Assembly (NCBI GenBank): GCA_037137395.1
Contig: JBAXKK010000036.1
Location: forward strand, 1-23,426
Length of the DNA stretch: 23,426 nucleotides
Direction: 5' to 3'
DNA from: Elusimicrobiota bacterium
GTDB taxonomy: Bacteria; Elusimicrobiota; Elusimicrobia; Elusimicrobiales; UBA9959
Shown piece after piece: positions 145-23,426 of the stretch. Position numbers and translations under genes: made by a program. Below the pieces are notes generated by a model, which was not told where the DNA came from, made no database searches, and saw nothing but the letters and a program-made list of their open reading frames with translations. Each line of letters begins with the position of its first letter. Within the stretch, counting starts at the first letter, position 1.

Positions 145-151
145 AGGTTAA

Positions 152-1318
152 TCATGTCAGCCGCCGATCTTGCGCCAGCGACCAGAAATATTTTCCGGTT
201 TTAAAGCTTCTTTTAACGCGGCCTTTCTTGACCAGCGCCTCGCCGGTGGTCAGGACGCTTGAGCCGTCCCTGCAGTCGTGGCAAAGCGGCAGGTTGCGCG
301 CGAGAGCGAGCACACGAGCCGTGGAGATATCGTTCTCTTTTTTAAGAACTTCCACGAAGCATTTTTCCAGGCTGTCCAGATATCCCGGTTCGGGACGCAG
401 CGCCCTTTTCTTCGCCGGCCGTGTTACCGGCTTAAATCCTTTCCAACCGAAAAGCTCCAGATAATTATGATCTACTCCGGAGCATCGCCTTTTGAATACG
501 CAGCCGGCGCAGACCGGCCCGCGCTCTTTGGCGTCGGCGATGTTGGAGTCCAGATCCCAGGTTCGGCCCAGAGGCGCGGCTACCAGGGTGTTAAATTTGT
601 AAAGTTCTACGGCCCGGGTTTCATGGCCGGGAAGCAGGCAGGGGGGCATGTTGAGAGCTTTTACGCCTTTTCCCAAGCCAGCGGCCTGCGCCAGGTCAAG
701 CGCTTCGGTTATAAACTTTGAAGCGTCAGGCATGCTGACTCCAAGCGTCCGATAGTTCCTGCGCATATTGCCAACATAGATAGGATAGATAAGCACGAAA
801 TTTGATACCCCGCGGTCCATAAAGAACCTCATGGATTTTTTTAGCCGGCGGTAATTTTGCTTTGTCAGCAGCAGATTAACGCCTACGGAGAGGTGCAGCG
901 CGAGCATGTTGTCCAGGCCGCGCAGGCTTTTTTTAAAAGATCCGGTTTTGCCTGTGCAGCGGTCATGAGCGCGTGCGTTTTCGCCAAGAAAGGTGAATTT
1001 GCATACGGTCAGGCCGGCCTCCGCCAGAGTCCGGCACAGCTTCGGACTGGAGAGTTTCATGCCGTTGGTTTGCAGCCTTACCGCCTTAAATCCAACTTTG
1101 CGGGCCATGGCGGTCAGTGACGGCAGGTCTGAGCGCAGCAATGCCTCGCCGCCGGAAAAACCGAGCCGCTGATACCCCAACTTTTTGGCTGTGTATATAT
1201 GCCGCACGGCCGCCTTCAGTTCAGTAGTCGCCGCGGGATCAAAATCGCTCTGCGAGCAGAATCCGCAGGCCAGATCGCAGTTGTGATTAAGGATTATTTC
1301 GTAGCACTGTTTGGTCAT
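152..1318 (-). CDS. Radical SAM protein (HxsC-like C-terminal Cys motif) with an extra C-terminal winged-helix-like domain
   Basis: CDLACGFC (CxxxCxxC), FSGGEA, LQTNG, NMPPCLL, tail CAGCVFKRRCSG...YLELFGWKGFKPV, then about 75 extra residues containing CHDC. ATG at 1318 (MTKQCYEII) is preferred over ATT 1360 because it aligns with the N-terminus of paralog 1394-2314. Confidence 0.9.
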   Translation of the reverse strand: MTKQCYEIILNHNCDLACGFCSQSDFDPAATTELKAAVRHIYTAKKLGYQRLGFSGGEALLRSDLPSLTAMARKVGFKAVRLQTNGMKLSSPKLCRTLAEAGLTVCKFTFLGENARAHDRCTGKTGSFKKSLRGLDNMLALHLSVGVNLLLTKQNYRRLKKSMRFFMDRGVSNFVLIYPIYVGNMRRNYRTLGVSMPDASKFITEALDLAQAAGLGKGVKALNMPPCLLPGHETRAVELYKFNTLVAAPLGRTWDLDSNIADAKERGPVCAGCVFKRRCSGVDHNYLELFGWKGFKPVTRPAKKRALRPEPGYLDSLEKCFVEVLKKENDISTARVLALARNLPLCHDCRDGSSVLTTGEALVKKGRVKRSFKTGKYFWSLAQDRRLT

Positions 1319-1335
1319 CGTGTAGTAAGGCGGGT

Positions 1336-1377
1336 AAAGACGAAGGTGCCGGTAAATCAAAATCCATCTTCGTCTTT
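1336..1377. promoter_or_regulatory. Intergenic stem-loop between the two paralogous radical SAM genes
   Basis: AAAGACGAAGGTG (1336-1348) pairs with CATCTTCGTCTTT (1365-1377): 12 of 13 Watson-Crick pairs and a 16-nt loop. No long U tract follows on the minus strand. Confidence 0.55.
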
Positions 1378-1393
1378 TCCAGCAGCTCAGCCG

Positions 1394-2314
1394 CTATTTT
1401 GTTTTAAGTTTTAAGAAATTTTTTACGGGTTTGAATTCCGTCCAGCCGTAGAGTTTCGGATACTCCCGCCACGGCCCTTCGCAGATCTCTAAATACTTGC
1501 ACTGGGCGCAGCGCGGACCTTTAACCTTGCCTTCCGCGCGACGGTAAGCGCCGTAATCTTCTATAAAGCGGTCGGCGTCCACTACCGGGCCGGCCGGTAT
1601 GATGCGCTCCGCCACGCAGGCTTCGTACCCTTTCATCAGGCAGAAAGGTATGGCCTCCGTGTAGCACAATACGCCTTTTTTTCGCCCCAGATCCAGGGCC
1701 TTTTTAAGATATGGCATGACGGCGGTTTTGCGCGGCACCAGCAGTTTTTTATTTTCGGCCGCGGAACCGACTATATGGATAAAGGCGAACTGGTACTGGC
1801 TCACGCCAAGTTTTATCAGCAAGGCCGCGATGGCCGGCAGTTCCCTGTAATTCGCTGAGGTCACTACTGTGTTGGTCAGGACTGGCAGGCCGGTCCTGAC
1901 CGCGTTGGCTATGCCTGTCACACTCTGCGTGAAGCTGCCTTTGGCGCCGGTCAGCGCGTCATGCGTAGCCGCCTTGGCGCCGTGAAGACTGGGCCCCACC
2001 TCGGTCAGACCGGCTTTTACCAGTTCCCTGCAGAAGCCGGGGTAGGCAAGGGTGCGTCCGTTGGTCTGGAGCTGTATGCTGTTAAAACCGATTTTTGCGG
2101 CGGTCCTTATAAAGTCAATTATGGCCGGGTGCATACTGGGTTCGCCGCCGGTGAAGACGACGCCCCGCACGCCGCTTTTATAAGCCTTCTTAAGTTCCGC
2201 CGTCACGGTTTCCGCGCTCCGGTCGGGATACATATCACGCTTATGACCCTGCGCGCAGAAACCGCAGAGGTTGTTGCAGCGGAATGAAATCTTTATATCT
2301 ATTCGTTTATCCAT
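1394..2314 (-). CDS. Radical SAM protein (HxsC-like clade)
   Basis: CNNLCGFC, FTGGEP, LQTNGR, AIPFCLM and C-terminal CAQCKYLEICEG...YPKLYGWTEFKPV. Overlaps the upstream gene by 8 nt. Confidence 0.92.
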   Translation of the reverse strand: MDKRIDIKISFRCNNLCGFCAQGHKRDMYPDRSAETVTAELKKAYKSGVRGVVFTGGEPSMHPAIIDFIRTAAKIGFNSIQLQTNGRTLAYPGFCRELVKAGLTEVGPSLHGAKAATHDALTGAKGSFTQSVTGIANAVRTGLPVLTNTVVTSANYRELPAIAALLIKLGVSQYQFAFIHIVGSAAENKKLLVPRKTAVMPYLKKALDLGRKKGVLCYTEAIPFCLMKGYEACVAERIIPAGPVVDADRFIEDYGAYRRAEGKVKGPRCAQCKYLEICEGPWREYPKLYGWTEFKPVKNFLKLKTK

Positions 2315-3002
2315 TCGGGATGAAGGTCTCCACCAGGCGTGTTATGGATTTGTGCTTGAGGGGGCGGTTAGGTGTGAAATAAGCGTTGCCGCGCATGTAA
2401 AGCGGCTCATCCAGCACTTTTGGATTAGTGAGTTTTACCGGCGCACCTTTGCAGGCTCCGGCGCAGGGGCTTGAATTAAATTTCCTGAGCAGGGGACAAA
2501 ACCTGGTAACCGAACGGAATCTGAGCGGGTAATTAAAATGCACGCGGCCTTTATATCCTTTCAGCTTCTCCATGACTTCGCTGCAGTCGGTTTCCACTGC
2601 TTCTATCGCGTAGGTTTTGCAGAAAGAATTAAGAAATTTTTTCTCCATTCGGCCGATCTCCCACATAAGGAGTCTGCCCAGTATTGGCTTCGCTTTTCCC
2701 GGGTATTTTTTATTCAGCAGGGCCAGCAGCCCCCAATCGTTGACTACTATTTCAAAGCTCCTCTGCTTTGACAAAAAGCCGGCCGCAAGGTCGGCGGCTT
2801 TTTGAAGGCCGGTGTCGCTAAGCATCGCGGTCATGGTCACTATGCGGCCCGGGAAAAGAGCACGCAGTTTCTTGAAGTCAGCGGGGGAAGGCAGTTTGTT
2901 CTGGCAGAACTCGCTGCCGAGATAAACGGCGTCGCAGTCTTTGAGCCTGGCGGCGGTGACTAAATTGAGGTCAGAGGGTGTTAAAGATATAGTTCTTTCC
3001 AT
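2307..3002 (-). CDS. Short U32-family (UbiV-like) putative Fe-S protein, copy 2
   Basis: DAVYLGSEFCQNKLPS resembles the UbiV YLGE..C motif. Also EIVVNDWG and C-x10-C-x3-C (CPLLRKFNSSPCAGAC). Paralog of 3955-4656. Confidence 0.72.
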   Translation of the reverse strand: MERTISLTPSDLNLVTAARLKDCDAVYLGSEFCQNKLPSPADFKKLRALFPGRIVTMTAMLSDTGLQKAADLAAGFLSKQRSFEIVVNDWGLLALLNKKYPGKAKPILGRLLMWEIGRMEKKFLNSFCKTYAIEAVETDCSEVMEKLKGYKGRVHFNYPLRFRSVTRFCPLLRKFNSSPCAGACKGAPVKLTNPKVLDEPLYMRGNAYFTPNRPLKHKSITRLVETFIPNG

Positions 3003-3906
3003 AGTTCTGCGCCTCCTTTATGGCCCTTGAACCCTCAAAGACGAATAATTCTTTTGAAATGCCTTTTTCCAGCAGTTTCATCAGATAAACGGTTTTAGCG
3101 AAAACCTCTATGACCTCGGCCACATTGGGGCCCCTGGCGACTTTCATGCAGTCGGCCCCCAGATGGTAGAAATCATAGAGCGTAGAAAGCAGCCATCGGT
3201 TATCCGGCATCGGCATCTGATAGGTTCCGCCGTCGCGGTTAAGCTGGGACTGGCAGGTGAAAGGACGTGGTTTTTTGCCGGCTACGATCTCCTGGCCGCA
3301 TGGGCACCACATCGAGCACAGCGGATTGAGGTTCGCCTCATAAAAAAGCGGCAGGCAGAATATTTCTATATCTATCCCCTGCTTGTTGTTGAAGAAAGGT
3401 GCGGCCTCTTCGGTGGAGAGCTGCTGTGGGAGAACTATGCGGTTTACGCCGCGCTTGCCGAAAAACTCCATCGCGCCGCGGTTGAAGCAGAGGGCCAGCG
3501 TGCTAAGCGTGAAATAGGTCTTTATCCTGTGTTTTTTAAAATAGTCCAGCAGAGCGATATCCCTTATGATGACGCCGTCCATGCCCCTTTCCACCAGGGC
3601 TGCTACGGTCCTAGCGGCCTTGTCAAATTCAGGGTCGGGGAAAATATCATTGGCTACCAGAAAAGCTTTCTTGTTCAGGGAATGAGCCAGATCTATGGTC
3701 CTGTGTATCTCGGCCATCGAAGGAAAATTCTCGGCCCTGACTCCGTGGTTCGGGATTTCTGGCAGGCCGCAATAGACCTCGTCGGCGCCGCGGGTCAGAA
3801 AATATTCCGCCTCTTTGGCCGTGCGGACTCCCACGGTCATTTCCATCCGGGTTCTTTTTCTTTTAACCGGGGTTGCGGGCGTTAGCGGGTTTTTCTTAGC
3901 TCTCAT
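2971..3906 (-). CDS. Long U32-family (UbiU/TrhP-like) putative Fe-S protein, copy 2
   Basis: GADEVYCG, DGVIIRDIAL, LSTLALCFN, RIVLPQQLS, EIFC-x12-C-x3-C...C and MKVAR. GAGG RBS 4 nt before ATG 3906. Paralog of 4619-5497. Confidence 0.85.
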   Translation of the reverse strand: MRAKKNPLTPATPVKRKRTRMEMTVGVRTAKEAEYFLTRGADEVYCGLPEIPNHGVRAENFPSMAEIHRTIDLAHSLNKKAFLVANDIFPDPEFDKAARTVAALVERGMDGVIIRDIALLDYFKKHRIKTYFTLSTLALCFNRGAMEFFGKRGVNRIVLPQQLSTEEAAPFFNNKQGIDIEIFCLPLFYEANLNPLCSMWCPCGQEIVAGKKPRPFTCQSQLNRDGGTYQMPMPDNRWLLSTLYDFYHLGADCMKVARGPNVAEVIEVFAKTVYLMKLLEKGISKELFVFEGSRAIKEAQNYGKNYIFNTL

Positions 3907-3910
3907 GATT

Positions 3911-3927
3911 CCTCTTTGGATATTATA
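3911..3927 (-). promoter_or_regulatory. Internal -10 element (TATAAT) and RBS upstream of the second U32 pair
   Basis: Minus strand reads ...ttgttatatataatatccaaaGAGGaatcATG. Perfect TATAAT at 3927-3922 in an AT-rich 48-bp gap. No convincing -35. Confidence 0.45.
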
Positions 3928-3954
3928 TATAACAATACGAGTGAGGAAATGTTT

Positions 3955-4656
3955 TTAGCGGTCCTGTTTTCCCCGGCCGGTCAGCGGCATAGTTACCTCG
4001 CGCCAGGCGGTTTTATCCGCCCGGGACGGGGGAACAGGAGTGAAATACGCTTTTTCAGCCAGGACCAGTTTGAAATCCAGACAGCGGCTGGAAAGTTTCA
4101 GAAGCCTGCCTTCGCAGGAGTGATCGCAGACGGACTTGAAATGCCGCTCAAAAGGGCAGTAGGTCGTGACGGCCCTGAATATTAATCCGTGGTGGCGTGA
4201 GACCTTCAGCCCGAGTCTTCCGGAAACAAGTGTTTCAAGTTCCGGGGTGTCGGCTTCGGCTGAAATTATGGCGTTTTTTTTCAGGAAACTCCGCGCCCAG
4301 CCGCGCTCCATCTTAACAAGTTCCCGGACCATAAGTCTGCCGGCTGAAACACGCGTCTGGCCGTATGCCCTGACCACCGGCAGGAATCCCCAATCGTTTA
4401 CTACGACTTCCCGGACCAGTCCTCCGCCCAGCCGGCTCAAAAGCTCTTTCCACCGGGCCAGGCCGCTATCTGTCATAAGCGAAGTGGCCAGCGCAAGGGA
4501 GCCGGGGAATATTTTCCCAAGCTTTTTAAGGCATTCAGGCGAAGGGACCTGATTCTGGCAGAATTCGCTGCCCACGATGAGCGTGGAATAGGCGGCCAGT
4601 TTTTCAGGCAATATCGCTTCAGCCTGCGAAGGGTTTAAAAGTAAAGCTTTTTCCAT
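3955..4656 (-). CDS. Short U32-family (UbiV-like) putative Fe-S protein, copy 1
   Basis: IVGSEFCQNQVPS, EVVVNDWG, GRLM and C-x9-C-x3-C (CPFERHFKSVCDHSC). Confidence 0.72.
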   Translation of the reverse strand: MEKALLLNPSQAEAILPEKLAAYSTLIVGSEFCQNQVPSPECLKKLGKIFPGSLALATSLMTDSGLARWKELLSRLGGGLVREVVVNDWGFLPVVRAYGQTRVSAGRLMVRELVKMERGWARSFLKKNAIISAEADTPELETLVSGRLGLKVSRHHGLIFRAVTTYCPFERHFKSVCDHSCEGRLLKLSSRCLDFKLVLAEKAYFTPVPPSRADKTAWREVTMPLTGRGKQDR

Positions 4657-5497
4657 ATTCTAAAGGTTTAGCGTCCAGTTTTCGGCCTTCGTGCACGAAG
4701 AGCTTGCGGGAGATTCCTTTTTCCAGCAGCTTAAGAAGATATCTGGCCTTGTGGAACAGATCTATCTGGCGCAGGGTGTTTGGCCAGCGCGCCACTTTCA
4801 GATGGCCTATGCCGGACTTGTAGTGATCGTAAAAAGCGTTAAGCATGTAGTCGGGGCCTGGCATCGGCATAAAAAATTCTTTCGCGCCGTTCTTGAAAGG
4901 CAGCAGACATGTGAAATCCCTGAAGCCGCCTTTTACATGCTGACCGGTCTGAGGGCAGGGTAGTGAGCAGAGGGAATCCACGTTTATGCCGTAATAGAGA
5001 GCCTGGCAGAAGACTTCGGTCTCTATGCCGAACCGGTTTTTTACGAGGCCGGCGGAGTTTTCCGGCATCATCTGCATGGGGAGGACGAGTCTGGAGACGC
5101 CCAGATCCGCGAAAAATCCCAGCGCTTTTGAGTTGAAGCAGTTTGCCAGAGTGCTTAAAGTAAAATAAAAACGGAATTTATTTTTCTTAAAATAGGCGAG
5201 CAGGGCCGGGTCACGCACTATGACGCCGGAAAGGCCTTTGGCTTTGAGGTCGGTCAGAAGCCGCAGCGTCAGGGCGTATTCTTTCTCGTGAACTATTTCG
5301 TTGGCGGCGACAAAGACTTTTTTCCCGCGGGCGCGCGCCAGTTTTATTATCTCTTCTACGGCGCCGGGGCCGGAGAGGTTCTCGCGGGGAAGCCTGTTAT
5401 TGTGCAGCCCGATCAGGCCGCAATAAACCTCGTCAGCCCCTGAGGTAAGGAAATATCCGGCCTCTTTTACAGATTTTACTCCGACGGTTATCTTCAT
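4619..5497 (-). CDS. Long U32-family (UbiU/TrhP-like) putative Fe-S protein, copy 1
   Basis: GADEVYCG, GVIVRDPAL, LSTLANCFN, RLVLP, EVFC-x12-C-x3-C-x15-C and LKVAR. Confidence 0.85.
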   Translation of the reverse strand: MKITVGVKSVKEAGYFLTSGADEVYCGLIGLHNNRLPRENLSGPGAVEEIIKLARARGKKVFVAANEIVHEKEYALTLRLLTDLKAKGLSGVIVRDPALLAYFKKNKFRFYFTLSTLANCFNSKALGFFADLGVSRLVLPMQMMPENSAGLVKNRFGIETEVFCQALYYGINVDSLCSLPCPQTGQHVKGGFRDFTCLLPFKNGAKEFFMPMPGPDYMLNAFYDHYKSGIGHLKVARWPNTLRQIDLFHKARYLLKLLEKGISRKLFVHEGRKLDAKPLEYGKSFTFKPFAG

Positions 5498-5507
5498 GGG
5501 TAGCAGT

Positions 5508-7310
5508 TTAGCGAGTTCTCATCCAGAGTTCCAGCATGAACAGGTTCCAGAGCCTGCCGTTGTGATCTTTCTCACCGGTCAGATGTTCCAAAAAAAGTTT
5601 TTCCACGGCTTTGCGCTTAAAAATATGTGCGGTTCTGGCGTCCGAAGAAAGCATGGAATCCCGGAAGAGCTTGTTCAGAGAACCCTTTATCCAAAGTCCG
5701 GCGGGTACGCTGAAGCCGCGCTGTTTAGCGGCGGTTATCTGACGCGGCAGATGTCGTTCCATCGTTTTGCGGAGTATGAATTTGCAGTTGCCGAGTCCGG
5801 GGAGTTTCCATTTTTCCGGCAGTGAGCGGGCAAGTTCCACAAGATTGTGGTCCATATAAGGGAAGACCACTCTCATGCCGGCGCGCGCGGCAGTGGCGCG
5901 CAGTCTGGGCACGGTGCATTCCGGATGGAAGGCGCAGAGGTCAGGCAGAGTAAGCCTGTTCAGCCAATCCTGCCCCGCCGTGTCTTTGATAATTTTTTGT
6001 ATAAGCCCGGAGGCAGTTTCGTGCTGCGTCCCGAGCGAAGCGTGGAATTCAGGGCGGCAGAGCTCCCGCCTTTCCTGTTTGAGGTAAAAATCGCCCGTGT
6101 CACAGAAGTAGATGCGGGAAAGCTCGGAGTAGATAAGTTTAAGTCTCTTATCGGTGGTATTGCGGATCTTGTCGGCCATATATGACGGCAGGCGGCTGCC
6201 GGCGGCTTGAGCTTTTGCCAGCAGAAGTTCCATTTCCGGGGCTTTTTGTTCCCGCGCCATATTGATCATCTGTCTTACGCGGCCGTAGCCCGCGAAGTTC
6301 TCGTCGCCTCCGTCCCCCGAGAACATGACATTGGCCACACCCTTCATCTGCTGCGCCGCTTTCCAAAGAGGAAAGGCGCACTGGTCCGCCTGCGGCTCGC
6401 CGTAAGCGGCGGACATTTCCAGAATATCTTTCTCGCCGGGCTCACCGTAATATATCTCATGGTGGTGCGAGCGGATGGCTCTTGCCAGAGTCCTTCCGGG
6501 ACCGAAAAAATCCCATTCTTTTCCCTCTACTCCGAGGGTGAAGGTGTTGACATCCGCACCGCAATGTATGGCCAGGGCTGAAACAGAAGAGGAATCTATG
6601 CCGCCCGAGACCATGGCGGCCGCTTGTTTCTCCTTGCCCAGGCGGTGCCTGGTGGCGTCCACAAGCGCCGAGTGCACGGCTTCGGAAGCTTCGTTAAAGG
6701 AGGAGAACCGGCCCTCTTTCATGGGCGGGGTCCAATACGCGCTTATAGATATTTTTTCGCCGCGCAGGGTCAGCACGGAGGCCGGCGGCAGTTTCCTCAC
6801 CCCTTTATACATGGTGAAGGGAGAGGGGATATAGCGCATGGTGAGGTAAAGATCTACGGCGCGCGGATCGGTCCCGGCGTCTACTCCCGGCAGGCGGCTC
6901 AGCATGGCGGGGTCCGAAGCCCAGGCTATGCCGCCGGAGAAGACAGCGTAAAAAACCGGGATCTCGGAAAAGCGGTCGGTCCCAAGCAGGATAGAATTAT
7001 TGTCCGCGTCATACATGACTAAAGCAAATTGCCCGCGCAGGGCGGAAGGAAAAGCGCTTCCCAGTTTTTGGTAAAAGGCGGCCGCGTCTTTGGCGCTTAC
7101 GTCGGGGCTTTCAAGCTGCAGCCATGAACCGGACTTCCCGGCAGAGTTAAGAATGGAGCTTCCGGGCGGAAGGGCCAGACCCGGGGCGGGGGAGAGTGGT
7201 ACGGCGGCTTTCGTTTTGTCTTCGCGGCTAAGGATGTCGCGGAGCAATTTTGCCGGTCTGACGCGGTTTTTATTGAAAAGATATATTCCCGCGAAGTAAT
7301 TCGGTCCCAC
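5508..7310 (-). CDS. Asparagine synthetase-like ATP-dependent amide ligase lacking the N-terminal glutaminase Cys
   Basis: LRGQFAL, DRFSEIPVFY, SGGIDSS PP-loop, SGDGGDENFAGY, FPYMDH and KQRGFSVP. GTG start with AGGGG RBS 5 nt upstream. N-terminus is MGPNYFAGIY rather than MCGI. Confidence 0.9.
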   Translation of the reverse strand: MGPNYFAGIYLFNKNRVRPAKLLRDILSREDKTKAAVPLSPAPGLALPPGSSILNSAGKSGSWLQLESPDVSAKDAAAFYQKLGSAFPSALRGQFALVMYDADNNSILLGTDRFSEIPVFYAVFSGGIAWASDPAMLSRLPGVDAGTDPRAVDLYLTMRYIPSPFTMYKGVRKLPPASVLTLRGEKISISAYWTPPMKEGRFSSFNEASEAVHSALVDATRHRLGKEKQAAAMVSGGIDSSSVSALAIHCGADVNTFTLGVEGKEWDFFGPGRTLARAIRSHHHEIYYGEPGEKDILEMSAAYGEPQADQCAFPLWKAAQQMKGVANVMFSGDGGDENFAGYGRVRQMINMAREQKAPEMELLLAKAQAAGSRLPSYMADKIRNTTDKRLKLIYSELSRIYFCDTGDFYLKQERRELCRPEFHASLGTQHETASGLIQKIIKDTAGQDWLNRLTLPDLCAFHPECTVPRLRATAARAGMRVVFPYMDHNLVELARSLPEKWKLPGLGNCKFILRKTMERHLPRQITAAKQRGFSVPAGLWIKGSLNKLFRDSMLSSDARTAHIFKRKAVEKLFLEHLTGEKDHNGRLWNLFMLELWMRTR

Positions 7311-7315
7311 GTCGT

Positions 7316-7370
7316 CCCCTATGAAAAGTTGATCTGTATCATCGTATAAAATTTAAGGTTCGCAGGGCAA
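7316..7370 (-). promoter_or_regulatory. Possible sigma70-type promoter and RBS for the AsnB-like/U32 sub-operon
   Basis: Minus strand TTGCCC (7370-7365)-N18-TACGAT (7346-7341), then AGGGG (7320-7316) before GTG 7310. Confidence 0.35.
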
Positions 7371-8444: not shown

Positions 8445-8495
8445 CTTGTCAGGTGTGACGGAAATATAAAGCCCCGGCGATGCCCTTGCCGGCGT

Positions 8496-8570
8496 GAATT
8501 TAAATGAGGGCGTGAGATATTCTACTTTTTCTGCCACACTCGCTGCGTTGGAATATTGTATCAGTTCTTT
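8496..8570 (-). pseudogene. Remnant duplicate of the polysaccharide deacetylase 3' end (direct repeat copy A)
   Basis: 66/75 nt identical to 10041-10115 with no gaps. Translates KELIQYSNAASVAEKVEYLTPSFKF versus KQLIQYSNVASVAKKVEYLARSFKF (20/25 aa). Confidence 0.85.
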
Positions 8571-8583
8571 AAAACTTAGATCC

Positions 8584-10820: not shown

Positions 10821-11019
10821 TTGATATATCAGTAAAACATATTTGGAACAAAAAATCTGCTCTCCTCACCGTTCAATTCCATGTAATTCCCGTAATAGAC
10901 AAGCGCCGGTAAAACTAGTAAAATCACCATGTCGGCGGCTGGCGAAATTCAGGCATATTTATGCCGATTTATCTGGAAACGGCCCGGTTGTTCCCGCATG
11001 TTAAATTAATCATGGAATT
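10821..11019. promoter_or_regulatory. Divergent promoter region with a palindrome and mirrored upstream motifs
   Basis: The only long non-coding gap (199 bp), between divergent ATGs at 10820 and 11020. Contains GGCATA-tt-TATGCC (10952-10965) and TTGTTCC-N3/4-ATGTT 31-32 nt upstream of each ATG. Confidence 0.6.
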
Positions 11020-12426: not shown

Positions 12427-12442
12427 TTTCGTGCTGATAGCC

Positions 12443-16087: not shown

Positions 16088-17607
16088 AAGTGTTATTTGT
16101 TCAGAATGTGGGGGAAAATCTGGGCGTGGAATATGTCTCCGCGGTCCTGAAGGGCCTAGGACATGAGACGTTCCTGGCCTTTGATCCCGCCATCGGCGAC
16201 AACTTCCGATTCAGGAGCGAGGCCGTAAAGAGTGTTTTCAGCTATGACGAAGCTATTGTGCGGCGTGTGAGGCAGCTCGCTCCGGATTTGATATGTTTTT
16301 CAGTCTATTCCGACACCTATCAGTGGGCTAAAAGACTGGCTGGAAAGCTTAAGAAGGAATGCGCCTCCCCAATACTTTTCGGCGGACATCACGCCACCGC
16401 CGCCGGCGAAGAAATTATAAAAGAAGAGAATGTTGATTATGTGTGCGTCGGAGAAGGTGAACCAGCCATCCCGGAGCTGATGGACCGGCTGGCCAGAGGC
16501 GGTGAGGACCCCGCGGCGCCATTTTCTGCTAATATTATATTTAAACACAACGGAGCCCCCATCTTCCCGCTGACGGTAAAGTTTGTGGAGGACCTGAATG
16601 CCCTGCCTTTGCCGGACAAGGGCCTGTTCTACAGGGAACACCCCGCGCTTGTGCGTGACCCCTACGCGGTGGTTACCAGCCGGTCCTGCATATTTGAATG
16701 CAGTTACTGCCATAACAGTTATTTAAGTCTGATATACGGGACCTCCCGTCATAAAGCGAGGAGGCGGAGTCCCGCGAACGTAATAAACGAGCTCCTCCGT
16801 GCGAAAGTTGAATTTAATATCAAAAGGGTCGCATTTTTCGACGATTTGTTCATTCATGACGCCGATTGGCTGAAAGATTTTCTGGCTCAGTACCGGGAAA
16901 AGATAGGTCTTCCGTTCTTCTGCACAGTTCACAGTCGGTTCCTTACCCCGGAAACCGTCGCGCTTTTGGAAAGCTCCGGTTGCGGCAGCGTGAATTTCGG
17001 GATTCAGACGATAAGCGAGCGGGTCAGAATAAAGGTACTCAATCGTTTCGAAGAAACCGCGCGGATACAGCGGGGAGTGGAATTGCTGGGCAGGACCAGG
17101 ATCTTCCTGTACACTAATGTTATTTTCGGCCTGCCGGGAGAGACCGAGGACGAGACGCTCGAAACAGTCAAATTCCTGAACGCCTGCAGGCCGGACTTTG
17201 CGGATTCAAACTGGCTTCGGTACTATCCTAAGACCAGGATCACGGAGTTTGCGGCCGAAGCCTCCCTGCTGACCCCGGAGCAGTTGTCCGGTATCGGGGC
17301 CGGCGCGCAAAGTCTCCCTTATTCACTGGGCGGACATACGAAGACTCAGGCCAACGCCAGGATCAGGAACCTTTTATGTCTTGTGAATTTTTTACCCAGA
17401 CGGATGGTGGAAACAATAATCGTGCGCAGGCTGTACCGCTGCCTGCCAGCGTTCGATCTTCGCGGGATTTGCGCGCTATGCAATATTGTATTCCAGAAAT
17501 ATTTCAGGGGTAAAAAATTCCCTTATCCCCATGTGTCCGCTCTTGAACTTCTAAAATTCAACGCGAAGTATGTTTTCAGGCGCGTTAAGGATATGACTTG
17601 TGCTTAA
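16084..17607 (+). CDS. Cobalamin-binding radical SAM protein, group B
   Basis: ENLGVEYVSAVLK, PDLICFSV, FGGHHAT, GEGE, TSRSCIFECSYC, FFDDLF, FGLPGET and LRYYPKT. ATGA coupling. Confidence 0.93.
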   Translation: MKVLFVQNVGENLGVEYVSAVLKGLGHETFLAFDPAIGDNFRFRSEAVKSVFSYDEAIVRRVRQLAPDLICFSVYSDTYQWAKRLAGKLKKECASPILFGGHHATAAGEEIIKEENVDYVCVGEGEPAIPELMDRLARGGEDPAAPFSANIIFKHNGAPIFPLTVKFVEDLNALPLPDKGLFYREHPALVRDPYAVVTSRSCIFECSYCHNSYLSLIYGTSRHKARRRSPANVINELLRAKVEFNIKRVAFFDDLFIHDADWLKDFLAQYREKIGLPFFCTVHSRFLTPETVALLESSGCGSVNFGIQTISERVRIKVLNRFEETARIQRGVELLGRTRIFLYTNVIFGLPGETEDETLETVKFLNACRPDFADSNWLRYYPKTRITEFAAEASLLTPEQLSGIGAGAQSLPYSLGGHTKTQANARIRNLLCLVNFLPRRMVETIIVRRLYRCLPAFDLRGICALCNIVFQKYFRGKKFPYPHVSALELLKFNAKYVFRRVKDMTCA

Positions 17608-18622
17608 ATCACATAATGAATTGATCCTTGTAACGGGAGCCACGGGCTTCATCGGTAAAAATCTGGTAACAGAACTGGCAGGCAGAGGGTTAAATGTGAG
17701 GTGTTTCGTGCGGGCTGGCAGCGACTGTTCTCTGCTGAAGCGGCTTAATGTAGAGATCGCAGTTGGAGATCTGCTCGATCCGCCCTCCATCCTCAGGGCT
17801 TTGGAGGGGGTGAGCGTTGTTTATCATCTGGCGGCGACGGTAAGACCGGCGGGCTCTATATACTCTAAGGGCGGCTTCGGGCGTCTTTGTTTCCGGACCA
17901 ATGTGGACGGCGCCATGAATCTGGCCAGGGCATGTCTCGCAAAAAAAGTGGAGCGCCTGGTTCATTACAGCAGCGTGGCAAGCGCGGGGCCGGGCGTTAA
18001 TATTACCGAGGACTGCGCCTCCAGACCCTTTTCCGTTTATGGCAGGAGCAAACTTGAAGGAGAGCAACAGATCCTCGGCCTCTTTAAAAGCTTTGGTCTG
18101 CCGGTGACCGTAATCAGACCAGGTATGGTCTACGGTCCGCACAGCGGCGCCTGGCGGATGCTGTTCAGGCTTGTGAATCTGGGTTTTTCCTTGTCGATAA
18201 AAGGAACGGAGATCCGTATGCCGATGTGCTATGTCGGCAATCTGATAGAGGCCACTATCGCTATCGGTGAAACTGGTAAATCGGGAGAAGTGTATTTCGT
18301 ATCCGATGAAAGCCGGTCCTTCGGGGAAACTGTGGAGATGGTGGGAATCGCTCTTGGGAAAAAGAGCAAACCCCGCGATATCTCAGTAAGCAAAAACCTG
18401 GTAAAATTTTGTTTGCGTGTAAAGGAATCCTTTGAGGCGCTGATACGCTTGGACATATTCCCCTTCAGGGTCAGTTTCGATTCAGAACTGCTGGCGGCCA
18501 TGCCTATTAACTGGAGCTGCGACACTTCCAAGCTGCTTCGGTTGGGCTATGTAAGGAAATTTACGGCCAGTGAAGGCATAGCCTTAAGCGTGGAATGGTT
18601 TCGGCGGAACAAACTTCTTTAA
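17600..18622 (+). CDS. NAD-dependent epimerase/dehydratase (extended SDR)
   Basis: LVTGATGFIG Rossmann motif, VYHLAA, HYSS, catalytic YGRSK and RPGMVYGP. Confidence 0.92.
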   Translation: MLKSHNELILVTGATGFIGKNLVTELAGRGLNVRCFVRAGSDCSLLKRLNVEIAVGDLLDPPSILRALEGVSVVYHLAATVRPAGSIYSKGGFGRLCFRTNVDGAMNLARACLAKKVERLVHYSSVASAGPGVNITEDCASRPFSVYGRSKLEGEQQILGLFKSFGLPVTVIRPGMVYGPHSGAWRMLFRLVNLGFSLSIKGTEIRMPMCYVGNLIEATIAIGETGKSGEVYFVSDESRSFGETVEMVGIALGKKSKPRDISVSKNLVKFCLRVKESFEALIRLDIFPFRVSFDSELLAAMPINWSCDTSKLLRLGYVRKFTASEGIALSVEWFRRNKLL

Positions 18623-18628
18623 ACTTCT

Positions 18629-20236
18629 ATGTACTTTTCTTTTCTCATTTTAATTGTGGTGATCTACGCTAACTTCGTAGGGCGCCAGTTCATATTTGAC
18701 CCCGCTTACTGCCTGTACCCGGATTCCCTGAATCTCTATTTTTACAACAGTGTTTCCGCGGCTAATTTGTACGCGAAAGACGTTTTCCTGGCCTATGCGC
18801 TCCAGGCCCGCCAGCAAAACCCGATAGCCTCGTATTCGCTGGTGGTGGATCTTTACGCTTTCCTGGCCAAGTATTTAAATATGGTCCTGATATTAAAAAG
18901 CGTATCTGTCGCGGCGTCTCTGGGTTGCTGCGCGCTCGTGCACAGGATAGGGCTTGTGATTTACAAAAGACCTCAAGCCGCGAAATTGCTGTGCGCGGTG
19001 TTCTGTGTTTACTTCCTTTCCATGGATTCGCTCTATCACGGGCAGCCCCGGACCTTCGGGATCCTGATATTCTGTCTCTTTATGTATTCACTCTTTACGA
19101 AAAGATTTTGCGCCCTGCCGGTTTTTATTATTTTAGCCTGGGCGTTTTATCCGCCGATCCTGCCGCTTATCTGCGCCTCGTGCGTTCTGGTGTTCTTCGC
19201 ATACGGGCCAAACTGGGCTCCGGGACTTAAACGGGCTTATGTCGCGCTGTTCGGGGCGTTCGCGCTGCTGGCGGCCGCCGTAGTCCTCGGCACTTACAAC
19301 GGCATGGATATCAGCAGCTACCAGATGTACAAGTTTTCCGGATTCCTCGGCCACGCAGCTGTTCTTCCAGACCCGATACGGTTTACGGCGTATTTTATCC
19401 TTAACTTGAACGAGCATAGCGAACTTTACAGGTATTTCACAATATTCTTTCTGCTGCTCGCCGGCATCTTTCTGTTGCGGGGAAAACTGAGTCTGCTAAA
19501 GAATATGCCCGGAGAGATAAAAACAGTTCTAGTCGGTTCTGCTGCGGCATTCATCCTTGTAGCCGGGTTTTCCCTGCCCACGGCTGCACGACAATTTGTA
19601 TTCACCATCCCTTTCGCGTTAACATTCGTGATTGTGGGTTATATGCTCCGCTGGACTGACAGCAGGCTCAAAACTGCCAGCTATATTGTTTTAACGGCTT
19701 TCGTGCTGCTGCATCCGCTTTACAACGATATTAAGAGCTTTTCAAAATATAAACTTGTCTATGAATATCTCAACCGGCAGGATCCCCAGGCCCTTATCGC
19801 GGGCCATCCGGACAGCGAGCTGATCTATTCTATTCCCTTTTTTGCCAAACGTCCTGTGGTCTCTTTTAAAGATATGGCGCAATTCCCCTTCAATCAACGC
19901 GCTATGCTGGATATACGGCGCAGATATGAGAACAGCCTGGCTTTTTTCTACGCCGATTCTGCCGCCGGAGCGGAGAAATTTATAGCAGAATACAAGCCGG
20001 ATTTAATTATCATAGAAAACTCGTTTTATTTCGGCGATACGGCCCGCTCCTATACGGAAAGAGGCGGAACGCTACCCGTTCCGGGGAAACGTTTTTGGCC
20101 GGCCTATGCACTAACACACTGTGATTTCAGTATAAGAACGGATGACGATGAAATCTGTGTAATTAAAACGAATTTGTCTGTTCCGGACGCTGCGCGCGCC
20201 CGTTCGGCTATTGCGCGGCAAGCGCAAGTTCCTTAA
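18629..20236 (+). CDS. Polytopic membrane protein with soluble C-terminal domain, possibly a GT-C-fold transferase
   Basis: About 10 hydrophobic segments by eye, an Asp-containing loop after the first helix (FDPAYCLYPDS...AKDVF) and a hydrophilic C-terminal domain of about 170 aa. The fold assignment is inferred from topology only. Confidence 0.6.
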   Translation: MYFSFLILIVVIYANFVGRQFIFDPAYCLYPDSLNLYFYNSVSAANLYAKDVFLAYALQARQQNPIASYSLVVDLYAFLAKYLNMVLILKSVSVAASLGCCALVHRIGLVIYKRPQAAKLLCAVFCVYFLSMDSLYHGQPRTFGILIFCLFMYSLFTKRFCALPVFIILAWAFYPPILPLICASCVLVFFAYGPNWAPGLKRAYVALFGAFALLAAAVVLGTYNGMDISSYQMYKFSGFLGHAAVLPDPIRFTAYFILNLNEHSELYRYFTIFFLLLAGIFLLRGKLSLLKNMPGEIKTVLVGSAAAFILVAGFSLPTAARQFVFTIPFALTFVIVGYMLRWTDSRLKTASYIVLTAFVLLHPLYNDIKSFSKYKLVYEYLNRQDPQALIAGHPDSELIYSIPFFAKRPVVSFKDMAQFPFNQRAMLDIRRRYENSLAFFYADSAAGAEKFIAEYKPDLIIIENSFYFGDTARSYTERGGTLPVPGKRFWPAYALTHCDFSIRTDDDEICVIKTNLSVPDAARARSAIARQAQVP

Positions 20237-20241
20237 TTTTA

Positions 20242-21300
20242 TTATTTGCCGGCGTGCCGGCGTATGAGCGGCCCGATCTTAACCAGTAGAGACAGAGGCA
20301 AATGTTTCAGCAGTAATCTGGCCGGGGCGAAGCGCTTCTGCTCCGGATCCATTTCCAGGTTGACCCCCGCGCGATATTGCCTGAAATAATACTTTATAGG
20401 GAATTCTTTCCCGCCCCACTTTTGCTTATGCTCATGGACTCCTGAGCCAGGTCGTGTCCGCATAAGATCGTACGCGCGCAAATTGGCGCCGCAGGCGGAA
20501 CGTATGGTTTCGTCGAAGAGCCGTATCTTGGGAAAGAATTCCTCAAGTTCCTGGTTTCCGGAGTTGATGTCCGCGAAGCGGGTGCCGTCATGCTCCAGGG
20601 TGAACAGCATGGCCGCCGGGCACCCGTTCACACGGGCTATGAACAACCGCCCAAGCCCTTCCTTCAGAAGATGCGTAAAGTACACGACCGGGAGCGGCGG
20701 GGAGCCGAATTCGCGCATCTGCCGCACGTAAATGTCGTATACGCCAACCATCTCTTCCGGCTCGCGGGTATCCGCAACCGAGACATATTTGTCGGCTTTC
20801 CTTAGATTTTTGATGAGGTTTGTCTGGAAGCGTTCGCGAAGGGCTGCGTATGGTGAAGAGGTGTTCAGCACAAAACGGGTATAAGGCGAAGCGCAAATAA
20901 ACCTTTCATCACTCTCCCCTTTCGGGAAAAGAATTTCCGTTCCCCGCAGTTCCGCGTAGTCAGCGCCGAGTTCCCCGGCGTCTTTATCCAGAACTTCCGT
21001 AACGGCGTCCCTCACCGCCTTCATGCTTTGCGCGTCCGGAGTTTCGCCGGGTTTGAACCATAGCGCTCCTTCATCCGAGAAAGGCATCGAGACGAGCCTT
21101 GTGCCGAATACGGGGGAGCGGACTACGGCGTACATGAATCCGCCTATACGCCCGGAACCCCGCCTAATGGAAAAAGTTTTTACTTCGTAACCGAAAACTT
21201 TCCGGCAGAGGCTAATCCACGCGGGGCTGCAGCAGTATGGGACAGCCTCATCCTTTTCGGGAATGGCGGAGTTGAGGTCTTCGGTTACGAGGCTTATCAT
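20242..21300 (-). CDS. FemAB-related GNAT-fold acyl/aminoacyl transferase (XrtA/PEP-CTERM-associated type)
   Basis: SPVFGTRLVSMPFSDEG, YAELRG, KNLRKA, MREFGSPP, YDLMRTRPGSGVHEHKQKWG and IGPLIRRH. ATG 21300 gives an ATGA overlap with the upstream stop; 21327 is an alternative start. Confidence 0.87.
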   Translation of the reverse strand: MISLVTEDLNSAIPEKDEAVPYCCSPAWISLCRKVFGYEVKTFSIRRGSGRIGGFMYAVVRSPVFGTRLVSMPFSDEGALWFKPGETPDAQSMKAVRDAVTEVLDKDAGELGADYAELRGTEILFPKGESDERFICASPYTRFVLNTSSPYAALRERFQTNLIKNLRKADKYVSVADTREPEEMVGVYDIYVRQMREFGSPPLPVVYFTHLLKEGLGRLFIARVNGCPAAMLFTLEHDGTRFADINSGNQELEEFFPKIRLFDETIRSACGANLRAYDLMRTRPGSGVHEHKQKWGGKEFPIKYYFRQYRAGVNLEMDPEQKRFAPARLLLKHLPLSLLVKIGPLIRRHAGK

Positions 21301-22793
21301 AGCGCGGGTGAAAATAGTTTCTGCCATAGACTCTTAAACTTGAGCTTCATGAAATAGCGGTACCTGCGCAGAAACTGACCGGTATTAAAATCATAGGCCG
21401 GCCTTTTTAAGAGACGGGTCAATATTCTGAGGAGGATATTGCCGGGCAGGAATTTCATCAGGAAAGTATTCCTGACCAGGCCTTTTCTTATGGCCGCGGG
21501 GAGAAGAGGTAATATAAGGAACAACGTGAAAAATCTGTCGAGTTCTGGCTGTGTTCCCGTAGGGCGGCTGATGATCCCTGACGGCCCCTCTCCGGCATCT
21601 ATCGCCGCCAGTTCTGCAGGCTTCAAAAGTCCCTCCTCCGCTGTTTTTATCGTCAATTCCGTGCCGGGATAATATTTAAGAAAAAACACCTCATTCTGGT
21701 CCGGAGTGTGTTCCGCATAAAAACCGGCCAGGTTCAGCAGATCTTTTTGCGTGTCTCCCGGCAAGCCTAAAATAGAATCACATACCGTGTACACGTTTTC
21801 ACGCCGGAGCATATCTATTGCGGCGGCTATTTTTTTATTGGAAGAGGGCCGCTTAAGCGTTTCAAGGCGGCGTCCTCCGTCGAAAGTCTGAACGCCGAGC
21901 TGGATTTTGAAACAACCGGCTTCTTTCAGAAGCCCGGCTGTTTTAGCATCCAGAAGGTCGGGATAAATAAAGCAGGAGAACGGCAGGCCTATCTCAGTCT
22001 TATAGCGCGGGAGAAAAGTCTCAAGCCAGGCCGTGTCCCGGTTGAAGACCTCATCGGTAAAGTGGACGAACCCGGGCCGCCATTTTTCCTTGGCGAGTGC
22101 GAGTTCTTTAAGTACATGTCCGGGACTTCTGCTCCTGGCGTATTTTCGTCCTCCATAAAGCCGCGCGTAGATATTGTTGGCGCAATACGCGCAGGCGAAG
22201 GGGCAACCCCGGGAGGCAGAGATAAGGTAGCCGCCGTTAAAAAACGAATAGCTCGAATAAAAAATATCCTTGTCGGAAAATTCAAGGGAGTCCAGGTCCA
22301 GCGGCGGGGCTGTCTCGCCCTTTATAACGGCTCCGTCCTTCTTCGACCAGATATTCGCTATGGGGGGTGAATCCTTAGCGGCCAAAGCCAGGGCCAGGGC
22401 CGGCAGAGCGCGGTCGCCCTCGCCCACACAGACATAATCCACGCAGTTGTGTGAGATTACTTTTTCAGGGACGCTGGTGGGATGTATGCCGCCGAAGACC
22501 ACGGGGACGCCCAGCTCTTTTTTAGCGGCGTCGGCCCAGCTCAGGGCCCAGCGGTAATTGTCAGTAAAAACCGAAAAGCAAAGGAGATCGGGCTTTTCGG
22601 CTTTTAGGAGAGCCATGGCTTCGTTCTTGAAATCAAAAAAATGCGCGGGGCCCTTCAGCCGCCAGAAACCGCTTTCATTAAACAGACATGGATCTATGAC
22701 CAGGCTGGTCTCAATGCCGGCTTTTTTAAGGGCGGCTGAAAGAGCCTCCACGGCGAGGCTTTCGTAGCCATTGTGGAGGAAAGTGACTTTCAT
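21297..22793 (-). CDS. Cobalamin-binding radical SAM protein, group B
   Basis: ATG 22793 (MKVTFLHNGYESLAVEALSAALK) overlaps the upstream stop (ATGA). Motifs PDLLCFSV, FGGIHPT, GEGD, ASRGCPFACAYC, FTDEVF, LGLPGDT and LKYYPGT. Confidence 0.93.
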   Translation of the reverse strand: MKVTFLHNGYESLAVEALSAALKKAGIETSLVIDPCLFNESGFWRLKGPAHFFDFKNEAMALLKAEKPDLLCFSVFTDNYRWALSWADAAKKELGVPVVFGGIHPTSVPEKVISHNCVDYVCVGEGDRALPALALALAAKDSPPIANIWSKKDGAVIKGETAPPLDLDSLEFSDKDIFYSSYSFFNGGYLISASRGCPFACAYCANNIYARLYGGRKYARSRSPGHVLKELALAKEKWRPGFVHFTDEVFNRDTAWLETFLPRYKTEIGLPFSCFIYPDLLDAKTAGLLKEAGCFKIQLGVQTFDGGRRLETLKRPSSNKKIAAAIDMLRRENVYTVCDSILGLPGDTQKDLLNLAGFYAEHTPDQNEVFFLKYYPGTELTIKTAEEGLLKPAELAAIDAGEGPSGIISRPTGTQPELDRFFTLFLILPLLPAAIRKGLVRNTFLMKFLPGNILLRILTRLLKRPAYDFNTGQFLRRYRYFMKLKFKSLWQKLFSPAL

Positions 22794-23426
22794 TCTTTTT
22801 TTGATTGGACGCGCCCGGCCACGGCCTCGGCGCTCTGAAGGCACTCTTCCATGTCCAGGTAAGAGTGAGCTCCGGTTCTGCCGCAAAGTTCCAGGTTGCG
22901 ATATTCAGAGAGCGCGGTTTTAATATTTTCAAGCGGGGCTTCGAAGCCGGCATAAAGCAGCGGGTAGGCGTGGGGAAGTCTTACCGCGGTAAAATCCATA
23001 GTCTCAAAGGCGCCGAAAAGTTTCATTGCCCTCAGGGAACATTCGGTTTCTTTAAGCAAGTCAGCGTCTTTCATGCGCCATATTCTGTCACCTTCATCGC
23101 AGAATATCTCGAAGGTTACAGGCAGGGTACCGCCCGAGCCAGCCATGGAAGGGCTCCAATTGGAAAGCTCGCAGGCGCGGGAAAAGAAAATTTCCTTTTC
23201 AGGAAAATAGATCCAATGGTCCCTGAGCGGCGCCGGACGTTTCATGGCGGCGAACAGGACTATAAGCGAGCGGTATTTTACTCCAGGGCCGGAAACTGAA
23301 AGGCCCGGGTTGTCCTTAAACAGTGGCGCCAGTCCGGTGAGCGGGATCGTGGATATCACATGGCGGCACGAGGCCTTGCGCGTTCTCCCGCCCTGTTCGA
23401 ACAGGACAGATTTTATTTTACCCCTA
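22790..23426 (-). CDS. C-terminal part of an FAD-dependent oxidoreductase (protoporphyrinogen oxidase/UDP-galactopyranose mutase-like), truncated by the window edge
   Basis: The frame stays open to the right edge (...GKIKSVLFEQGGRTRKASCRHVISTIPL). Motifs YRSLIV, DHWIYFPE, NWSPSM, HAYP and LCGRTGAHSYLDMEEC. Confidence 0.78.
   Translation of the reverse strand, partial: RGKIKSVLFEQGGRTRKASCRHVISTIPLTGLAPLFKDNPGLSVSGPGVKYRSLIVLFAAMKRPAPLRDHWIYFPEKEIFFSRACELSNWSPSMAGSGGTLPVTFEIFCDEGDRIWRMKDADLLKETECSLRAMKLFGAFETMDFTAVRLPHAYPLLYAGFEAPLENIKTALSEYRNLELCGRTGAHSYLDMEECLQSAEAVAGRVQSKKE

Follow-up and report, generated by a model that had tools for sequence, protein, structure and literature searches.

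The right-hand arm of a precursor-centred radical SAM island in uncultured Elusimicrobia

Introduction

Canonical His-Xaa-Ser (HXS) systems of Pseudomonadota consist of HxsD, HxsB, HxsC and HxsA, and the four genes are found together in more than 99.8% of cases. Their effector, as described by Li et al. 2026 (PMC13128918), is a periplasmic protein in the 214-aa range that carries five repeats and a peptidoglycan-binding domain and stops phage DNA entry. The subject of this paper is a stretch of 23,426 nucleotides from an uncultured member of the Elusimicrobia (contig JBAXKK010000036.1 of assembly GCA_037137395.1), referred to as the window at its full length. It forms the right-hand end of a larger island of radical S-adenosylmethionine (SAM) genes centred on a precursor of His-Xaa-Ser type, and it brings together paired U32 proteins, B12-binding radical SAM enzymes and a membrane glycosyltransferase of the GT-C fold.

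Three other described systems bear on this locus. UbiU–UbiV, a ubiquinone hydroxylase encoded by adjacent long and short U32 genes, draws its oxygen from prephenate (PMC10990095), and UbiV carries the cysteine motif CXnCX12CX3C (PMC6747719). Paralogues of group VI nitrogenase (nif) in Elusimicrobia are reported with up to 13 neighbouring radical SAM genes, for which a tetrapyrrole product was proposed (Meheust et al., 10.1101/765248); according to a 2026 review, group VI has no characterised member (PMC13474568). In the TfpW pilin glycosylation system of Pseudomonas aeruginosa, the gene for a GT-C enzyme lies close to that for a small surface protein with a processed leader, and the glycosylation is linked to phage evasion (PMC11841053). 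A literature search, supplements excluded, found no published account of the expanded island, of U32 proteins in peptide maturation or of the sugar arm described below. To these systems the window adds an arm of B12 and GT-C enzymes that is tied strictly to a single precursor type and in which DegT and AsnB-like genes are exchanged.

A His-Xaa-Ser-type island

The window makes up the entire contig C36 in a metagenome assembly of 2.70 Mb (G000; completeness 98.9%, contamination 7.7%) and covers part of a larger locus. Gene calling gives 20 coding sequences (g1 to g20) in three transcription blocks, on the minus strand from 152 to 10820, on the plus strand from 11020 to 20236, and on the minus strand from 20242 to the end; an earlier note on this DNA, made from the sequence alone, had taken the genes to be co-operonic, which does not hold. 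The note's count of ten radical SAM proteins, five of them B12-binding, is borne out: ten proteins pass Pfam Radical_SAM (PF04055) above cut-off, each with CxxxCxxC, and five of these also pass a B12-binding domain (g9, 8584–9924; g11, 11020–12426; g14, 14558–16087; g15, 16084–17607; g19, 21297–22886). The genome has 63 PF04055 matches, ten of which fall within 0.9% of its DNA. This amounts to 10 genes against 0.55 expected per 23.4 kb (Poisson P(≥10) = 4 × 10^-10), a figure that, with genes non-independent, shows only that radical SAM density exceeds background. None of the ten window proteins (0/10) reaches an NCBIfam equivalog cut-off.

The precursor-peptide gene, for which the earlier note proposed that the flanks be read, lies on the adjoining contig C61 (11592–12020). 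It encodes 142 aa, comprising a basic leader, a hydrophobic stretch, a (Ser-His-Gly)n repeat with 27 SH units, which is the longest repeat among the precursors read, and a tail ending SY; the sequence is identical in G001, a genome of the same genus. The protein passes the HxsA4 model NF038313 (91.4 against a cut-off of 55), with a score that comes largely from the low-complexity repeat. Its only Pfam match is a spurious collagen repeat, and a peptidoglycan-binding domain is absent. The leader ends in an F-x-x-x-E-E-G motif, which may resemble Flp pilin leaders, and a GT28-like gene begins 2 bp past the precursor stop codon. HxsB genes on C61 and C64, both outside the window, pass TIGR03978 at 470 and 483 against a cut-off of 370, while the HxsC cut-off of 268 (TIGR03977) is not reached, the best score being 167 on C64. 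On C64, HxsB has a small conserved gene on either side; neither matches an NCBIfam model at 1e-12, and both are putatively called HxsD-like from their position. The island also encodes an A24-like (prepilin-peptidase-like) protein, which scores 19.7 bits against a cut-off of 26.5 and keeps two Asp residues in at least 90% of 13 copies.

The window contributes two further enzymes of this kind, both on the minus strand. The first, g1 (152–1360), is an HxsC-like radical SAM protein with a C-terminal CPLC/CxxC extension; it matches PF04055, scores below cut-off for HxsC (88/268) and HxsC4 (85/500), and has orthologues of 43–92% identity in islands with a sugar arm. The second, g2 (1394–2314), is HxsC4-like, likewise under cut-off (HxsC4 143/500, HxsC 94/268), and its orthologues (57–97% identity) occur in islands without a sugar arm too.

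Contig-end overlaps were rejected as sole proof of a join, since they are located in repeats and a further contig, C31, also shares the overlap between C64 and C61; the C64–C61 join is based on synteny only. The left end of the window and the end of C61 share an exact 51-nt overlap inside a dispersed intergenic repeat, whose terminal part occupies window positions 1–151, breaks the assembly and has many BLASTN matches genome-wide. Because this overlap alone is weak, the C61–C36 join was tested further. A bridging contig of 684 nt from a sequencing run of another study (X4) passes from C61 15757–16237 straight into window 148–350 without the repeat, its two matches having been paired by equal length, depth and complementary coordinates. 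In G001 the repeat is missing as well, and the identical precursor and window genes of about 90% identity all lie on one contig. Only the G000 strain has the repeat (window 1–151; C61 16237–16497), which there separates g1 from the neighbouring radical SAM gene.

Elsewhere in the group the gene sets of C64, C61 and C36 form a single island downstream of phoH (G003, G009 and G066). Gene order is conserved in ten relatives (G003, G009, G016, G029, G065, G066, G071, G080, G083 and G084), and orthologues at 30–60% identity remain together across three genera. The earlier note would have counted a lack of co-location of homologues in other genomes as a refutation; they are co-located in many genomes, so the locus stands. 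Measured between the first HxsD-like gene of C64 and the end of the window, the island spans 45.4 kb with 19 radical SAM genes, both figures being lower bounds. With canonical HXS systems (PMC13128918) it shares a His-Xaa-Ser repeat substrate, HxsB above cut-off, HxsC-like enzymes and small helpers beside HxsB; it differs in its number of radical SAM genes, its own A24-like peptidase, its U32 pairs and its GT-C sugar arm. Gene maps of the island do not contain the four-gene D-B-C-A order. As HxsA4 and HxsB pass their models while HxsC, the gene order and the peptidoglycan-binding domain are wanting, we class the locus as an HXS-like island and not as a canonical member. The earlier note knew of no characterised pathway with this combination of genes; no published system was found here either, while the core does match the HXS kind through HxsA4 and HxsB.

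The putative sugar arm

U32 pairs and g2 are present in many islands that lack sugar genes, and genes 2–6 therefore belong to the peptide core, the rest being an optional arm. The first gene of that arm after the U32 pairs, g7 (5508–7310, minus strand), encodes an AsnB-like ATP-dependent amide ligase (PF00733, 198 bits) with SGGxDS at position 235; its N-terminal Cys is absent, and its amine source is therefore probably not glutamine. Next to it lies g8 (7371–8537, minus strand), a radical SAM/SPASM protein (PF04055 and PF13186) that is paired with either DegT or AsnB. A DegT aminotransferase stands beside the g8 orthologue in eight of the 11 other arm copies and is fused to it in two (one fusion recognized by Pfam, the other by length). 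The eleventh copy (G029) has an AsnB-like gene as neighbour, as in the window, so that g7 occupies the position of the DegT aminotransferase in relatives and an AsnB-like gene is seen in 1/11. Pairs of a radical SAM dehydrogenase and an aminotransferase occur in aminoglycoside pathways (BtrN/BtrR). By analogy, the simplest reading of g8 with DegT or g7 would be oxidation of a sugar followed by amination or amidation, and g8 is likely a sugar oxidase.

The remaining genes of the first block are the B12-binding radical SAM gene g9, which matches PF02310 and PF04055 and reaches no NCBIfam equivalog, and g10 (9921–10820), a CE4 polysaccharide deacetylase of the DUF3473 type (PF01522 and PF11959). 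The plus-strand block holds, besides B12-binding g11, g14 and g15 (all by Pfam), two radical SAM/SPASM genes also assigned by Pfam, g12 (12314–13513) and g13 (13506–14558); the true start of g12 is probably about 40 codons downstream, its G001 orthologue having 356 aa. It continues with g16 (17600–18622), an NAD-dependent epimerase/dehydratase of the short-chain dehydrogenase/reductase (SDR) type (PF01370, 117 bits; YxxxK at 147), and ends with g17. The last block, on the minus strand, contains a FemAB-like GNAT protein, g18 (20242–21327; PF13480), B12-binding g19 (Pfam), and g20 (22790–23426), a PRK07208-like FAD oxidoreductase (PF01593). The contig end truncates g20, leaving its 5′ half missing, and the island continues beyond; the full orthologue in G001 has 442 aa. 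Deacetylase, FemAB-like, AsnB-like, SDR and flavoprotein genes had all been named in the earlier note, and hidden Markov models match every one of them.

The GT-C-like membrane protein of the earlier note is g17 (18629–20236, plus strand), a 535-aa protein with no Pfam or NCBIfam match whose structure models place it with GT-C glycosyltransferases of the STT3/PglB/DPY19-like fold. The AlphaFold2 (AF2) model has a mean predicted local distance difference test (pLDDT) score of 78, and its top Foldseek matches are the protein glycosyltransferases DPY19, STT3 and PglB at E-values of 2e-5 to 1e-4; 24 matches fall at E ≤ 1e-3, and all 23 among the matches listed are GT-C enzymes. Among its language-model (Atlas) neighbours, PMT_2 or STT3 is found in 11–32% of members. 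A homologue search with g17 as a single protein found three close sequences only. Acidic residues of the first external loop, Y30-x-D32 and D51, are invariant in 13/13 sequences. The alignment lacks WWDYG, the acceptor-binding motif of the oligosaccharyltransferases STT3, PglB and AglB. The likeness of g17 to TfpW is drawn from gene context, and the TfpW system is without radical tailoring.

Deacetylase, FemAB-like and AsnB-like genes also occur together in XrtA/PEP-CTERM exopolysaccharide loci, a link that the earlier note had drawn and that fails here. The three XrtA models are under cut-off (TIGR03006, 196/276 for g10; TIGR03019, 93/260 for g18; TIGR03108, 227/817 for g7) and no exosortase is found in G000 (PF09721, 0 matches in the 98.9% complete genome), so the XrtA locus was rejected. 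The same note had derived from the whole gene set a modified sugar or lipid unit transferred to the cell envelope: sugar tailoring and transfer are supported for g7–g20, given the GT-C fold, the DegT neighbours and similar cassettes in glycan-like loci elsewhere, but the peptide-island context had been missed. In many genomes without the sugar arm, g1–g6 follow the peptide precursor.

Co-inheritance of precursor, U32 pairs and arm

The distribution of these genes was followed in 80 genomes of one Elusimicrobia family (f1). The precursor is present in 68/80 and in 47/52 of the high-quality genomes; seven of the 12 precursor-negative genomes are under 90% complete. A short UbiV-like U32 gene occurs in 55/80 genomes, 54 of which also have the precursor, and is absent from 11 of the 12 precursor-negative genomes. 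A g6 query matched 22 of 36 family genomes and, in two further families belonging to the same order, none of the 24 genomes searched.

Three arm markers were chosen, the GT28-like gene (22/80), g17 (19/80) and g20 (18/80), at E-value thresholds set by the analyst at 1e-20, 1e-5 and 1e-30, respectively. All three coincide in 18 genomes, and all 18 carry the precursor. The g17 gene lies on the precursor's contig in 14 of these genomes, at a distance of 7–43 kb. Tail types, read in the 30 best precursor loci, follow the arm: all 19 GT28-positive precursors with a readable tail end in SY and none in RGGWC, while the RGGWC tails (4/30) are all armless; two tails of the 30 are cut. One genome, G015, has both tail types, and there it is the SY precursor that adjoins the sugar arm. 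In G071 a second island contains tandem SY-type precursors, each followed by a small uncharacterised protein (C2, 35165–36364).

U32 pairs

The pairs g3/g4 and g5/g6 lie on the minus strand between the HxsC-like genes and g7. Long members g4 (2971–3846; start probably at 3846, longest open reading frame to 3906) and g6 (4619–5497) are UbiU-like and the only ones among the four U32-type proteins to match PF01136, at 58 and 47 bits; they share 45% identity, and g6 is 73% identical to its orthologue in G009. Short members g3 (2307–3002) and g5 (3955–4656) match no Pfam or NCBIfam model. The earlier claim of four U32 proteins thus stands directly for g4 and g6, while g3 and g5 owe the label UbiV-like only to their cysteine arrangement, their fold and a weak match between profiles.

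In g3 the cysteines are arranged as Cys33...Cys169-x10-Cys180-x3-Cys184, and g5, 37% identical to g3, has the identical pattern. The four positions are kept in 35, 35, 35 and 34 of 35 homologues (CXnCX10CX3C), so that the four-Cys motif of UbiV is retained with a spacing two residues shorter. Aligned to Escherichia coli UbiV by hhalign, the g3 family gives E = 1.5e-4 with C33 on C39, and two of the 35 short homologues weakly match the UbiV-type model. The AF2 model of g3 is a confident beta/alpha barrel (pLDDT 93.8), for which Foldseek returns weak TIM-barrel matches, none at E ≤ 0.001; the Atlas model matches, at a template modelling (TM) score of 0.74, a cluster in which 37% of the members are U32 proteins. 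Searching PDB sequences with the long and the short U32 alignment gave no match below E 0.08. The profile of the long family matches E. coli UbiU at 99.2% probability, with C177 and C198 invariant in 33/33 sequences. Within the UbiU Cys segment g4 and g6 hold five and four Cys, in an arrangement other than the UbiU motif CX6CX16CX38C.

With UbiU–UbiV (PMC6747719, PMC10990095) the window pairs have in common adjacent long and short genes, a first Cys far upstream and a link to prephenate supply; they differ in that UbiT is not beside the pair and in a peptide or glycan context rather than a quinone one. The ubiquinone pathway itself was rejected on this context and on equivalog scores, which stay under cut-off for UbiU (62/440 and 55/440) and for UbiV (26/275 or none). 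The putative hydroxylases g3/g4 and g5/g6 likely act on the precursor without oxygen.

A cross-phylum scan found 233 U32 loci, the best 80 of which were examined. Its query was a conserved Omnitrophota-type subfamily (A4), the 35-sequence alignment being too diverse, and it biases the contexts away from the window's subfamily. Short and long genes are adjacent in 68 of the best 80 loci, the other 12 being unscored, and in three (L155, L178 and L190) the two are apparently fused, as judged by reading-frame length. The quinohemoprotein amine dehydrogenase (qhp) operon of Calidifontibacillus erzurumensis has a U32 pair flanked by qhpB and qhpF (L194, 5246–14560). The same short and long pair between qhpB and qhpF is seen in operons of Sporosarcina, Planococcaceae and Acidobacteria (L186, L193, L160, L163 and L172). 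QhpG dihydroxylates a peptide Trp using O2 (PMC7876137), and a QhpG-like query matched 0/5 of the qhp/U32 genomes, in a search run without a positive control; the query, taken from a Pseudomonas plasmid, is a QhpG candidate by position whose annotation reads just FAD-dependent monooxygenase. By analogy, the qhp-linked pairs support peptide hydroxylation by the U32 family. In Omnitrophota loci L116–L128, radical SAM genes are interspersed with as many as three U32 pairs and accompanied by an ATP-binding cassette (ABC) exporter; these loci resemble other peptide-maturation clusters.

Prephenate supply

The U32 pair abuts a chorismate mutase gene in six relatives of three genera (G012, G015, G018, G024, G027 and G034). 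In all of these except G015 a shikimate operon lies beside the pair; G018, G027 and G034 carry the complete operon as an insertion within the island. Chorismate mutase is present in 73/80 family genomes, prephenate dehydrogenase in 3/80 and prephenate dehydratase in 0/80, whereas all 14 control genomes are positive for both dehydratase and dehydrogenase. The window's own genome has its shikimate operon on C1 (3509–10078), ending at chorismate mutase, and neither prephenate dehydratase nor prephenate dehydrogenase is found in it. Retention of chorismate mutase without prephenate dehydratase fits prephenate-dependent hydroxylation by the U32 pairs. More distantly, a U32 pair adjoins DAHP synthase in Desulfotruncus (L173, 8911–11784) and lies near chorismate synthase in an Undinarchaeota genome (L147, 9779–13557).

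Proposed pathway and alternatives

We estimate at roughly one in two the probability that the arm supplies late tailoring of the repeat protein, combining U32 hydroxylation with a modified sugar unit transferred by the GT-C enzyme. A more specific version is offered tentatively: a dedicated protein glycosylation in which eight radical SAM enzymes, five of them B12-binding, shape a sugar that the island's own oligosaccharyltransferase-like GT-C attaches to a radical-modified His-Xaa-Ser surface peptide, itself also U32-hydroxylated with oxygen from prephenate.

Maturation would begin with HxsB, the HxsC-like enzymes (g1 and g2 included) and the small HxsD-like helpers, which would modify the His-Xaa-Ser repeats as in E. 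coli HXS. The A24-like aspartic peptidase would cut off the basic leader, probably after F-x-x-x-E-E-G. Acting as putative heterodimeric 4Fe-4S, prephenate-using hydroxylases, g3/g4 and g5/g6 would likely act on the rings of His residues or on the C-terminal Tyr. For the sugar, g8 may oxidize a carbon that is then aminated by DegT in relatives and amidated by g7 in the window, and the five B12 enzymes with g12, g13, g16, g10, g18 and g20 would methylate, epimerize, deacetylate and re-acylate the unit. Finally, g17 would move the unit from a lipid carrier onto the peptide at the outer face of the membrane. The predicted product is a decorated surface or periplasmic protein, plausibly serving phage defence or receptor masking.

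Several observations weigh against this tailoring of the repeat protein. The full three-marker arm is absent from 50 of the 68 precursor-positive genomes, and five of the 30 precursor loci read have SY tails without an arm. The 18 arm genomes are kin from three genera, so that the coincidence of arm and precursor is co-inheritance and not independent replication. No flippase or priming transferase is found in the window, and the radical SAM and U32 proteins are expected to be cytoplasmic while the GT-C acts outside. With regard to hydroxylation, g4 and g6 have no Cys at the UbiU C169 position, which is kept in 26/33 homologues, and g3 and g5 fall outside the clade of qhp-linked short U32s in a quick tree. 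As to the peptide acceptor, Hxs genes lie within 10 kb in only one of the best 80 cross-phylum loci, which were retrieved with a different subfamily. Chorismate mutase occurs also in genomes without a UbiV-like gene. Contig C81 of G000 encodes a U32+DUF3656 protein, another prephenate user, which could explain the retention of prephenate. Its architecture is that of the rRNA hydroxylase RlhA.

The strongest alternative, a possible but distinctly less probable one, is that g7–g20 are a self-contained envelope-glycan or glycolipid cassette docked beside the HXS island, with a product destined for lipopolysaccharide or another envelope polymer and genes 1–6 still serving the peptide. Omnitrophota-type genomes have similar cassettes of flavoprotein, DegT, radical SAM, U32 pair, B12 array and GT2/GT-C genes, one with an ABC exporter, and HxsB was found in none of five such genomes (assemblies of 0.8–1.7 Mb; G000 positive as control); given these cassettes without HxsB, the acceptor of the arm may not be the peptide. 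Whichever acceptor applies, the arm was probably recruited as a glycan-tailoring cassette. The same account draws on the structural matches of g17, for which AftA, ALG9 and ALG12, with lipid or glycan acceptors, nearly equal the protein-acceptor GT-Cs, on the shuffling of gene order within the arm among genomes, and on the absence of the arm from most precursor-positive genomes. Other B12 radical SAM genes of G000 lie in ordinary glycan loci (C1, C6, C35 and C82), to the same effect. Transfer to the peptide is favoured instead by the presence of the precursor in every armed genome, by the GT28-like gene directly behind its stop codon, by the restriction of the arm to one of two tail types and by the lack of an exosortase in G000. 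Cassettes of Omnitrophota and Planctomycetes type that include Tes/TrsS-like radical SAM genes, apparently without HXS genes, are seen in L130, L137, L139, L142, L145, L152 and L153.

An unlikely alternative is a diffusible product of the arm, a small molecule or cofactor either of aminosugar or nucleoside type or tetrapyrrole-like for group VI nif, with the U32 pairs hydroxylating its ring. The BtrN/BtrR-type pairs mentioned above would suit such a product, as would the proposal made for radical SAM genes beside group VI nif (Meheust et al., 10.1101/765248). Those neighbourhoods share B12-fused radical SAM genes with the island and very probably belong to the same island family; the main text of that report contains no occurrence of 'U32', its passages on these loci do not mention a repeat precursor, and its Figure S6 may show the loci. 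Moreover, NifH-fusion and NifD-like genes lie inside the island of several relatives (G016, C6 34721–38507; G029, C7 68404–72319; by similarity also G017, G026, G033 and G080). They comprise a NifD-like gene and a group VI NifH to which a nitrogenase component-1 domain is fused, and their position in the island varies. Set against this, G000 has no such NifH or NifD-like gene (best NifH 65 bits against 190–221; no BLAST match), and the islands of G001, G003 and G009 are without NifH yet have the arm. A GT-C enzyme implies transfer to a membrane-side acceptor, and a repeat precursor with HxsB is central to the island. With nif-like genes absent from G000, a tetrapyrrole pathway was rejected as the purpose of the window.

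A repeat-driven pile-up of paralogous radical SAM genes without a common pathway is highly improbable: G000 is indeed rich in radical SAM genes (63) and intergenic repeats, and B12 and U32 copy number differs between relatives, but reading frames are intact, junctions are short or overlapping, three unrelated markers fall in the same 18 genomes, and synteny of orthologues at 30–60% identity across three genera largely refutes it.

If late tailoring of the repeat protein is correct, prephenate-dependent, oxygen-free hydroxylation would extend from quinones and RNA to peptides. The more specific version would bring U32 chemistry to a ribosomal peptide for the first time and would explain a shikimate route kept only to prephenate. 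One substrate would undergo HXS radical maturation, GT-C glycosylation of the protein and cobalamin-dependent radical methylation of the sugar, three chemistries that to our knowledge are not known to act together. Radical-SAM-rich islands around group VI nitrogenase paralogues would then be re-read as peptide-centred. With the precursor present in 68/80 family genomes, these uncultured freshwater bacteria probably have in its product a major trait of their envelope. The hydroxylase question would be testable with related U32 pairs from the isolates C. erzurumensis and Sporosarcina sp.

Other genes of the island

Genes for a SufS-like desulfurase, a YgeY hydrolase and a carbamoyltransferase are interleaved with the island in G000 (C61, 4402–8669) and in most relatives, with carbamate-kinase-like genes close by. 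The arms of G009, G065, G066, G071 and G083 contain a radical SAM fusion of about 850 aa, an AMP-binding ligase and class I methyltransferases that are absent from the window, and the arm of G015 additionally carries a carbamoyltransferase gene.

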